DNA of 64,000 nt from Candidatus Omnitrophota bacterium (GTDB lineage Bacteria > Omnitrophota > Gorgyraeia > Zapsychrales > Fredricksoniimonadaceae). The stretch spans positions 7,085 through 71,084 of the forward strand of contig JAGWOI010000009.1 of assembly GCA_028870995.1 (NCBI GenBank), read 5' to 3'. Of the stretch, positions 25,634 to 26,802 are shown in pieces. A program made the position numbers and the translations under genes. The stretch's first letter is position 1. The number at the start of each line of letters is the position of its first letter. The notes below the pieces were generated by a model. The model was given only the letters and a program-made list of their open reading frames with translations, ran no database searches and was not told the DNA's origin.

Positions 25634-25810
25634 GCGTATAGGTTAACCGGTATTGCTTCAGAAACGGGGATATTTTTGCCGTCCGCTACGGTTTACAGCT
25701 CGGCTGCTATCGCGATAAGGCATTCGCGGCAGCCTCGCTGTAAAGCCTTGCGGACATTTGGCAAAAAATCTCTGATCGTTTCTGAAGCAATACCGGCTTA
25801 ACCTATACGC
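25634..25810. repeat. Giant imperfect palindrome, family 1, copy 2 (177 bp)
   Basis: Arms are GCGTATAGGTTAACCGGTATTGCTTCAGAAACG / CGTTTCTGAAGCAATACCGGCTTAACCTATACGC. The core is shared with copies 1 and 3, with compensatory changes between the arms. Confidence 0.9.
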
Positions 25811-25837
25811 AAGAAATATAGCGGCATCAGCCTGGTA

Positions 25838-26596
25838 ATGGTTTACGAACTTAATAGATTCGTGAGTAACGACAAGTATGTTGACAAAAAAGACATTATT
25901 GACGCAATACGTAAAACCGCAAAACAGAACGGCGATAGCCCTTTAGGCGTCGGTAGATTCGAAAAAGAGACAGGAATAAAAAGTTATGATTGGGGAAAAT
26001 ATTGGGCACGGTTTGGGGATGCACAAAAGGAGGCTGGTTTTAAGTCAAATCAGTTACAAATTGCCTATACTGACGAGTTTATTATTGAGAAGATAATTGG
26101 TGTGATTTGTAAGCTTGATAAATTTCCAACCCTACGCGAAATGGTGGTAGAACATCATAACGATTCTGAGTTTCCGAGTTATAGTGTTTTTAGACGCTTA
26201 GGTACGAGGGAACAAATTGTAAATAAAGTAATGGAATATTGTAAGGATAAGAGTGCTTACGATGATATTGTTACTCTTTGTGGATCAATTCTTGGGAGTT
26301 CCAAAGATGAAAAGGTTATGGATGAGTCTAACATTCAGATTGGAGAAGTATACCTTTTCAAGTCGTGTCGGTATTATAAAATTGGAAAAACATATGACAC
26401 CGTGAGGCGGGGCAGTGAACTTAGGATTCAATTACCAGAAAAATGCGAATTAATACATTCTATTAAGACTGATGATCCAAGTGGTATCGAAGCTTATTGG
26501 CATAAACGATTTGAGACGAAAAGGATGAATGGTGAGTGGTTTGACTTAAGCTTTGCTGAAGTAAAGGCATTTAAGCTTTGGAGACGTATAAATTAA
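25838..26596 (+). CDS. Free-standing homing-endonuclease-like protein: two N-terminal HNH/homing-endonuclease-associated repeats plus a C-terminal T5orf172/GIY-YIG-like nuclease domain
   Basis: C-terminus is [27 protein letters not shown]...[33 protein letters not shown] (the GIY..YIG..R..E..N pattern of T5orf172). N-terminus has two repeats of ...P..FGxxxxA..EAGF type ([35 protein letters not shown]). AT-rich. Confidence 0.7.
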   Translation: [252 protein letters not shown]

Positions 26597-26634
26597 GATG
26601 TATTTATGGCAGGGAGCAGATATGTGCATGGAAA

Positions 26635-26802
26635 GGATGGATAGGTAGGATGTTTTCAGAACGGGGATATTTCCGCCGTCCGCTACGGTTTATGGCTCGG
26701 TTTCTATCGCAATAAAGCATACGCGGAAACCTCGCCATAAAACCTTGCGGACATTTGGCGGAAAATCCCTGAATATTCTGAAAACATCCTACCTATCCAT
26801 CC
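26635..26802. repeat. Giant imperfect palindrome, family 1, copy 3 (168 bp)
   Basis: Arms are GGATGGATAGGTAGGATGTTTTCAGAA / TTCTGAAAACATCCTACCTATCCATCC. The core is conserved while the outer arms differ from copies 1 and 2 yet remain perfectly self-complementary. Confidence 0.9.

Follow-up and report, generated by a model that had tools for sequence, protein, structure and literature searches.

The locus between mlaE and mlaF

The stretch analysed here (hereafter the window) comprises 64,000 nucleotides (nt) of the Candidatus Omnitrophota contig JAGWOI010000009.1 (assembly GCA_028870995.1, positions 7,085 to 71,084). Between mlaE and mlaF it carries a solitary gene for a protein of the GIY-YIG nuclease type, and a giant hairpin lies on either side of this gene (Table 1). 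The distance from the mlaE stop to the mlaF start is 1,214 nt (25625-26838) and holds a single open reading frame (ORF). The GC content is 0.36-0.38 over 25850-26600, compared with 0.55-0.60 in the flanks. A sequence-only reading of the window had reported a low-GC segment of about 1.2 kb at this place, a free-standing gene resembling homing endonucleases within it, and giant hairpins on both sides. Its observation is accurate at the coordinates it gave: the length and composition of the segment agree, the translated ORF contains the motifs that it quoted, and both hairpins are borne out by perfect arms and by folding. Its label "essential operon" for the mla genes is an overstatement.

Table 1. 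Features of the mlaE-mlaF locus and of related sites, in positions of the window
Feature	Position	Strand	Remarks
F1 copy 1	14128..14297	+	between rplQ and a 2.1-kb low-GC island
mlaE (permease)	24839..25624	+	Pfam MlaE 4.7e-77; left insertion edge at its stop codon
Left spacer	25625..25837	+	repeat-element DNA throughout; F1 copy 2, then a short 3' stretch
F1 copy 2	~25634-25810	+	basal-stem class B, apical class alpha; in left spacer
Solitary GIY-YIG (MUG113/T5orf172) gene	25838..26596	+	252 aa, intact ORF, 36-38% GC
HEAR-like helical unit 1 (aa ~17-68), candidate	25886..26041	+	motif and helices of AlphaFold model
HEAR unit 2 (aa ~77-135)	26066..26242	+	HNH_repeat PF18780 17.4 bits; homologs score higher
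GIY-YIG-type nuclease domain (aa ~169-245)	26342..26572	+	VYLF...YYKIGKT...RRG...AYWHKRF...GEWF; Pfam
Right spacer	26597..26838	+	contains F1 copy 3, oriented as copy 2
F1 copy 3	26635-26802	+	basal-stem class A, apical class alpha; in right spacer
mlaF (ABC ATPase)	26839..27612	+	Pfam ABC_tran 1.8e-34; right insertion edge at its start codon
mlaD	27629..28321	+	Pfam MlaD 5.8e-17
cysS/tmk junction, genes abutting	33990..34030	+	empty counterpart of the site of a GIY-YIG homolog in L002/L010

Empty and filled insertion sites

Species-representative genomes were scanned with MlaE, which gave 24 Omnitrophota loci, and both genes could be placed by tblastn in 23 of these. All 24 share the gene order clpC-mlaE-mlaF-mlaD-radA. 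The close MlaE relatives are without exception metagenome-assembled genomes of Omnitrophota, and the 23 span 67-86% MlaE identity. A protein identical to the GIY-YIG protein of the window is on record from a genome of this kind; an exact look-up of the GIY-YIG and MlaE proteins in the assembly index gave nothing. Judged by the tblastn ends, the apparent gap between mlaE and mlaF is below 100 nt in 18 of the 23, and the spacer measures 2-64 nt at the 13 junctions that were read directly. The two genes are thus normally adjacent in this clade, as the sequence-only reading had supposed, and uninterrupted junctions in related genomes, which it had proposed as a check, exist and are as tight as 2 nt. 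None of the 23 Omnitrophota relatives carries the GIY-YIG gene between mlaE and mlaF.

Nucleotide conservation among the relatives takes in the last mlaE codons, up to the stop, and the first mlaF codons, so that the conserved mlaE 3' end and mlaF 5' end delimit the insert. Among close relatives, the spacers have diverged too far to give base-exact insertion ends or to reveal a target-site duplication.

One related genome has the opposite arrangement. In CAWHFJ01, contig_27482 (loci L002 and L010; loci outside the window are numbered with an L), the mlaE-mlaF gap is 2 nt. The same genome has a 1.35-kb insert between cysS and tmk that carries a 71%-identical GIY-YIG gene; the window's own cysS and tmk follow each other with practically no spacer. 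This reciprocal pattern of empty and filled sites indicates that related genomes acquired the gene, or a member of its family, at different tight junctions. Together with the absence from the site in 23 of 23 relatives and the unameliorated GC content, it shows the segment to be a derived insertion and not an ancestral gene.

The cysS-tmk site is filled in L002 and apparently also in L155, and the two share flanking sequence. L155 and L156, contigs of only 973 and 961 nt, are the sole known source of the closest homolog (78% identity). Each of these contigs ends about 90 nt before the gene and about 150 nt after it, and their flanks match L002. Repeats around such cassettes probably fragment short-read assemblies. 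In L002, ARAGORN places a tRNA-like gene of undetermined anticodon on the minus strand downstream of the GIY-YIG gene (5875-5949), and a portion of its 5' part recurs in inverted orientation at 5757-5785. The L002 cassette may have entered next to a degenerate tRNA gene, or may have brought it along.

A conserved family of GIY-YIG proteins

The window protein matches two Pfam nuclease families above their cut-offs, MUG113 with 56.3 bits (5e-15; cut-off 22.3) and T5orf172 with 27.8 bits (3.8e-6; cut-off 20). All 44 homologs that were aligned with it match both. The similarity to GIY-YIG/T5orf172 proteins that had been read from the letters therefore passes a profile search. Ten residues are invariant in the 44-sequence alignment (Y172, Y180, K181, G183, R190, R191, H222, E233, W234 and F235). 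By analogy with I-TevI and with the T5orf172 glutamate cited in PMC10448857, Y172, Y180, R190/R191 and E233 may have catalytic roles. A sequence search of the PDB with the window protein returned chance-level matches only.

The N-terminal region was predicted to hold two homing-endonuclease-associated repeats (HEAR; Pfam HNH_repeat, PF18780, cut-off 26 bits). HNH_repeat scores 17.4 bits in the window protein, below the cut-off, and the Pfam match is limited to one unit (aa ~77-120). Within the family, the repeat is found at E <= 0.01 in 39 of the 44 members. Six homologs were scanned singly; four pass the cut-off (27.2-38.8 bits), two lie at or just below it, and a single stretch is reported for each, which corresponds to unit 2. 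An AlphaFold model of the window protein has a repeated 4-helix unit in the N-terminal region. A profile-profile comparison of unit 1 with unit 2 in hhalign was not significant. Two HEAR repeats are likely but half proven, unit 1 being recognized by its motif and by the helices of the model. Of the architecture proposed from the sequence alone, the nuclease module and one HEAR unit are upheld, the latter by the family and in unit 2, while the second copy finds no statistical support.

In a word-indexed search, 2,957 relatives were recovered, and the 120 best of them are all about 240 aa long and 60-78% identical to the window protein across 86-100% of its length, and their source names include Omnitrophica, Kaiserbacteria of the Candidate Phyla Radiation (CPR) and Pacearchaeota of the DPANN archaea. 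Searching for the family by tblastn at E <= 1e-5 gave no match in 50,697 phage records and none in 72,556 plasmids. IMG/VR contains only two weak, domain-level matches of 36-43% identity. The description of the gene as "phage-type" is thus an analogy rather than a finding.

Seven homologs whose surroundings were looked up occupy six different neighbourhoods, the window included. These are cysS-tmk; a dCMP deaminase with a pseudouridine synthase; topA/AAA_14 with DUF134; a HAD hydrolase with HicAB; Gp49/HicB/SLT; and mlaE-mlaF of the window. The upstream gene is co-oriented with the GIY-YIG gene in all six, and no partner gene is constant across them. Identical GIY-YIG proteins encoded on 15-21 contigs have one and the same context each time. 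One site per variant is the behaviour expected of a homing-endonuclease gene (HEG) rather than of a multi-copy transposon. Judged by their sequences, these proteins form one conserved family of about 240 aa that appears to have spread among Omnitrophota, CPR bacteria and DPANN archaea, and that stands alone in each host.

F1, a family of giant palindromic repeats

Each spacer beside the GIY-YIG gene contains one copy of a hairpin family that we call F1, and a third copy lies elsewhere in the window. Copy 2 has perfect 20-nt arms (25647-25666/25777-25796) and a minimum free energy of -118.8 kcal/mol (z = -14.8), and copy 3 has perfect 27-nt arms (26635-26661/26776-26802) and a minimum free energy of -119.6 kcal/mol (z = -10.9). 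None of 200 shuffles folds as well as either copy. The 113-nt cores of these two hairpins are 85% identical. Copies 1 and 2 share one basal stem and copy 3 has another, and the apical type is common to all three.

A search with the conserved 23-nt right-arm pattern recovered F1 in 50 metagenome stretches, and no GIY-YIG homolog was found within their flanks. An alignment of 41 copies indicates a modular element of about 170 nt, with a conserved middle stem and several interchangeable apical sequences and basal stems. In the middle stem, GGGATATTTTTGCCGTCTGCTTCGGTTTAC pairs with GTAAA.CCT.GCAGACATTTGGCAAAAAATCCCTGA, and an ATTT bulge is fixed. Compensatory change is widespread: 28 of the 43 predicted pairs keep pairing in at least one sequence in which both sides have changed. 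The ends of F1 are ill-defined because the basal stems vary. Of the 32 cases that could be scored, 29 have the element between co-directional genes; it usually occupies the whole spacer, and its orientation relative to the genes is biased 23:6.

The mlaE-mlaF spacers of three relatives (L015, L016 and L019) contain a hairpin and nothing else, and that of L013 contains a reversed F1 together with different cargo. In L014, the spacer between mcsB and clpC contains a truncated F1; the window's mcsB-clpC spacer is 55 nt long and empty. From these cases we infer that F1 is independently mobile. The sequence-only reading had suggested that the hairpins might be the ends of the mobile unit. This does not fit the presence of F1 without a GIY-YIG gene in 50 stretches, its insertion alone elsewhere, and the different surroundings of other GIY-YIG homologs. 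We conclude that F1 is an independent, lineage-specific repeat family resembling ERIC, Correia and REPIN elements, and that its copies are not the termini of a GIY-YIG unit.

After their arms, the hairpins continue with AAGAAATA and GTCCAAGC, and neither is followed by a T-run. There is no terminator-like site in 24700-27100 and no promoter-like site in either spacer. Two further suggestions made from the sequence, that the hairpins terminate transcription and that a promoter in or after copy 3 relieves polarity on the downstream genes, are therefore not borne out. F1 was also considered as a known RNA family and gave no Rfam match. Apart from one tRNA, the Rfam covariance models matched nothing in the window at gathering scores, and nothing matched in 25560-26900 at E <= 1. 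A full-text literature search for palindromic repeats in Omnitrophota returned nothing relevant, and the F1 repeat family is apparently undescribed.

In two pairs of loci (L105 and L112, L132 and L136), the flanks are 80-84% identical and apparently orthologous, and F1 stands at the same place. The basal stems within each pair belong to different classes. Differing stems at shared sites suggest that copies have replaced or converted one another, or that F1 inserted more than once at the same spot.

Other hairpin families and repeat-derived junctions

The hairpins that adjoin GIY-YIG genes belong to three unrelated families. In L002 and L157, the hairpin upstream of the gene is of a different family from F1. 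The GIY-YIG genes of L140 (Pacearchaeota) and L147 (Kaiserbacteria) have no inverted repeats around them, and the upstream spacer of the L005 gene has a short inverted repeat with 13-nt arms and no giant hairpin.

A second hairpin family, F2, is represented in the window at 56223-56441, in a spacer of convergent genes, with 23-nt arms that are 96% complementary. Related copies occur in L002 (4707-4935, directly upstream of the GIY-YIG gene), L016, L012 and L014. Several families of short palindromes resembling REP (repetitive extragenic palindromic) sequences, such as TGTCATTCCCGCGAAAGCGGGAATCC, GTCATTGCGAGCGCAGCGAAGCAATC and GTCATCCTGAGCGAAGCGAAGGATC, cluster with giant hairpins in spacers of L015, L017, L018, L126, L133 and L134, and at 4670-4700 of L002.

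In L013, a close relative, the mlaE-mlaF spacer (6781-7722) contains a 942-nt insert of 38% GC. This insert consists, in order, of short REP-like palindromes, a hairpin of a further type (F3), low-GC small ORFs and a reversed F1. Within the clade, insertions seem to recur in the mlaE-mlaF spacer, which would make it a hotspot.

The left junction of the GIY-YIG gene itself contains repeat DNA. Positions 25807-25849 match DNA that lies 3' of F1 in two unrelated loci, L097 and L127 (motif ...ATATCGGCATCAGCCTnnTAATG), and resemble the right end of F3. The annotated start codon (ATG 25838) and the next three codons fall within this stretch, and resemblance to the other GIY-YIG family members sets in only near codon 15. 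The 5' end of the gene therefore arose at a junction, and the true start could be ATG 25838 or GTG 25862. A 13-nt match, GGCATCAGCCTG, to the L013 spacer (E = 0.035) is not significant alone, and was later supported by the longer match to DNA 3' of other F1 copies. By sequence similarity, both spacers created by the insertion appear to consist almost entirely of repeat-derived DNA, which seems to supply the start of the ORF.

Cargo beside F1 and a second low-GC island

The three F1 copies of the window border its only two low-GC islands. The second island (14300-16400; 2.1 kb, 31-45% GC) lies between rplQ and lysS and begins 62 nt past F1 copy 1, and its far end has no hairpin. It encodes five small co-oriented ORFs, including a PemK/MazF-like toxin (15222-15632, Pfam 8.2e-10). 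A sigma-70-like sequence, TTAGCA-17-TATAAT, was read by eye just past F1 copy 1 (~14313-14341).

When F1 copies are aligned by orientation, the GC content of the 3' flank is lower than that of the 5' flank by at least 0.08 in 10 copies, and the reverse holds in one. The ORFs on the low-GC side include GmrSD, DUF559 and Mrr_N proteins, small membrane proteins and a CopG-like antitoxin. In L013 and L135, hairpins bracket single-gene cassettes that carry other cargo; further cassettes have a hairpin at just one of their sides. Most F1 copies lie between ordinary housekeeping genes and have no cargo.

Interpretation

The explanation that we consider probable, with considerable room for doubt, is that the window carries a horizontally acquired, free-standing, HEG-like gene of the T5orf172/GIY-YIG type in a tight operon junction, and that independent palindromic repeats fill the spacers around it. 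The HEAR-type helical units of the N-terminal region would position the C-terminal nuclease on a specific DNA site. The enzyme would then cut a related genome at its conserved junction that lacks the insert, and the gene would be passed on when the break is repaired from the gene-carrying copy. Such a process would amount to intronless homing, as for the seg/mob genes of T4 and the T5orf172 genes of ICP1, and homing by the GIY-YIG protein is plausible by this analogy. The gene would be transcribed by read-through within the mlaE-mlaF-mlaD operon. Given its co-orientation with the operon and the lack of promoter-like and terminator-like sites, read-through is the simplest inference, and the polarity problem raised by the sequence-only reading may then not arise. 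F1 would colonize spacers between co-directional genes independently, as ERIC, Correia or REPIN elements do.

Several points weigh against this explanation. A hairpin of at least 150 nt ends 27-65 nt upstream of the GIY-YIG start in all three Omnitrophota-type contexts (the window, L002/L155 and L157), which coincidence alone does not comfortably explain. No second genome has the gene at mlaE-mlaF, so that site specificity is deduced from one occurrence. The confidence of the AlphaFold model is low at residues 188-198 of the nuclease domain, and structure searches with the model recovered no GIY-YIG folds. HEGs usually decay, and the maintenance of this family at 60-78% identity over its full length is unusual for them; such conservation could indicate a function that benefits the host. 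Nor did the searches find phage or plasmid homologs that would point to a vehicle for transfer between cells.

That the gene was acquired horizontally and then kept for the benefit of the host, as a repressor (compare CapR) or as a nuclease against invaders (compare Odn), strikes us as unlikely but worth serious attention. T5orf172 proteins have been co-opted both as a repressor and as an anti-satellite nuclease (PMC10448857). The very high full-length conservation, with catalytic and DNA-binding regions intact in 44 of 44 homologs, would fit such a role. So would a weak PADLOC match to the candidate system PDC-S57 (E = 0.002) and the neighbours found elsewhere, which are often of toxin-antitoxin or defence type (HicAB, AAA_14/DUF4143, Gp49). 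However, comparison with defined defence families gave nothing significant for the protein, NCBIfam gave no match, and the family lacks a conserved partner gene. Its patchy occurrence among close relatives and its different sites in related genomes are a signature of selfish insertion.

A smaller chance attaches to a functional role of the hairpins as landing pads or insulators, that is, as palindromes at which foreign cassettes integrate or next to which promoterless cassettes are tolerated within operons, for example through processing of the read-through transcript by an RNase III-type enzyme. The bracket around the gene would then be linked to insertion without being specific to GIY-YIG genes. 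The lower GC content of the 3' flanks, the ORFs downstream of F1 (GmrSD, DUF559, Mrr_N, a CopG-like antitoxin and the PemK toxin) and the hairpin-bracketed cargo of L013, in this same spacer, and of L135 all fit this idea. The strand-biased placement of F1 between co-directional genes and the compensatory changes in its stem also agree with it. Against it stand the many F1 copies without cargo among housekeeping genes and the several cassettes with a one-sided hairpin, and the enrichment is weak when counted by gene-level GC. Moreover, insertions create dispensable spacer DNA in which repeats can settle, which would give the same pattern without a functional link, and neither an integrase nor attC-like core sites were found. 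If the landing-pad idea is true, F1 and its sister families would be more than junk: as recombination sites, or as RNA processing and insulation sites that separate a cassette from the host genes, they would allow promoterless nucleases, restriction enzymes and toxin-antitoxin pairs to be captured and tolerated inside tight housekeeping operons. Such a cassette system would rest on hairpin repeats that have no relation to the attC sites of integrons.

We regard it as improbable that F1, the GIY-YIG gene and the second F1 form one composite mobile element that ends in the hairpins, in which either the nuclease cuts and mobilizes F1, with solo F1 copies as non-autonomous derivatives, or the hairpins are its target sites. 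Two F1 copies of the same orientation do bracket the gene, the window's F1 copies all border its only two low-GC islands, and giant hairpins lie immediately upstream of the gene in L002 and L157 as well. But the other F1 loci, about 48 in number, have no GIY-YIG homolog in their flanks, the hairpins adjacent to GIY-YIG genes come from three unrelated families, and the CPR and DPANN homologs have none. GmrSD, DUF559, a toxin-antitoxin pair and membrane proteins adjoin F1 in the same way as the GIY-YIG gene does. Copies 2 and 3 differ in their basal stems, each of which is perfectly self-complementary, and so they are neither a recent duplication nor chimeras produced by recombination at one F1. 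A parent element of palindromic-repeat type would also have one half-hairpin at each end and not two whole ones. Campbell-type integration through one resident F1, which would leave two direct copies, was likewise rejected, since the basal stems of copies 2 and 3 are different and non-chimeric.

That the gene was present between mlaE and mlaF in the ancestor and was lost in the relatives is suggested by the intactness of the ORF only, and is next to impossible given its absence from all 23 relatives across 67-86% MlaE identity, with junctions down to 2 nt, a GC content about 20 points under that of the host, and closest homologs in other loci and other phyla.

Comparison with known systems

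The explanation that we favour, a HEG-like gene with independent repeats in its spacers, has its closest precedent in phages. T5orf172 genes of phages behave as HEGs (Barth, Nguyen and Seed 2023, PMC10448857). In ICP1-like and T5-like phages they are variably present, free-standing, equipped with modular DNA-binding repeats and located near essential genes (PMC10448857). The gene in the window has much in common with them. Its T5orf172 nuclease domain occupies one terminus of the protein and DNA-binding modules, probably repeated, the other, and it is a free-standing single gene that varies in presence between relatives and lies, as theirs do, beside or within conserved or essential operons. 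It differs in that its DNA-binding modules are helical HEAR-type units and not zinc fingers of the CapR, DUF723 or DUF4397 kind (PMC10448857). It also resides in a bacterial chromosome, and its family keeps 60-78% identity across bacterial phyla and archaea with no visible decay. Free-standing T5orf172/GIY-YIG genes have so far been discussed chiefly in connection with phages. The conserved family described here appears to travel between chromosomes of Omnitrophota, CPR bacteria and DPANN archaea, all of them ultra-small and uncultivated, and it can split junctions with 0-3 nt between the genes. The reciprocal empty and filled sites provide exact candidate target sequences for cleavage.

The Seg proteins of T4 are free-standing GIY-YIG homing endonucleases that cut a gene-less allele near the insertion point, whereupon repair copies the gene. 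Their homing occurs in mixed phage infections, and they are often expressed by read-through. The nuclease gene of the window similarly lies between conserved genes, and the same mechanism would be expected by analogy. Unlike seg genes, it is chromosomal in uncultivated bacteria, and homing in that setting is proposed by analogy.

Integron cassettes offer another comparison. In both cases, promoterless single genes adjoin imperfect palindromes, and the cargo is often of toxin-antitoxin or defence type. In contrast to attC, the F1 hairpin lies upstream of its cargo, is at least 170 nt long and has a conserved middle with variable ends, where attC has the opposite. An integron origin was rejected on several grounds. 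The core sites R'' (RYYYAAC) and R' (GTTRRRY) are not conserved, the basal stems of copies 2 and 3 differ completely, and only copy 1 has fitting 7-mers, which are in reversed order. The cassettes are single and form no arrays, and no integrase is encoded in the neighbourhood.

ERIC (IRU), Correia (NEMIS) and REPIN elements are palindromic intergenic repeats. F1 resembles them as an imperfect palindrome in the range of 100-200 nt, with many dispersed copies in spacers of co-directional genes, an orientation bias, and a presence or absence that varies independently between relatives. It differs from them in its modular build, in which the middle stem is conserved and the apical and basal stems are interchangeable, and in its host phylum, Omnitrophota. 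No target-site duplication, transposase or RAYT turned up for F1, although no dedicated search was made. The family is abundant, structurally constrained and strand-biased, and it would affect the structure of operon transcripts and break short-read assemblies in this phylum. Overall, these comparisons extend known concepts to new hosts, with no major concept changed. The GIY-YIG gene is of a known kind, a free-standing, HEG-like T5orf172 gene, and the repeat family beside it, F1, has apparently not been described before.

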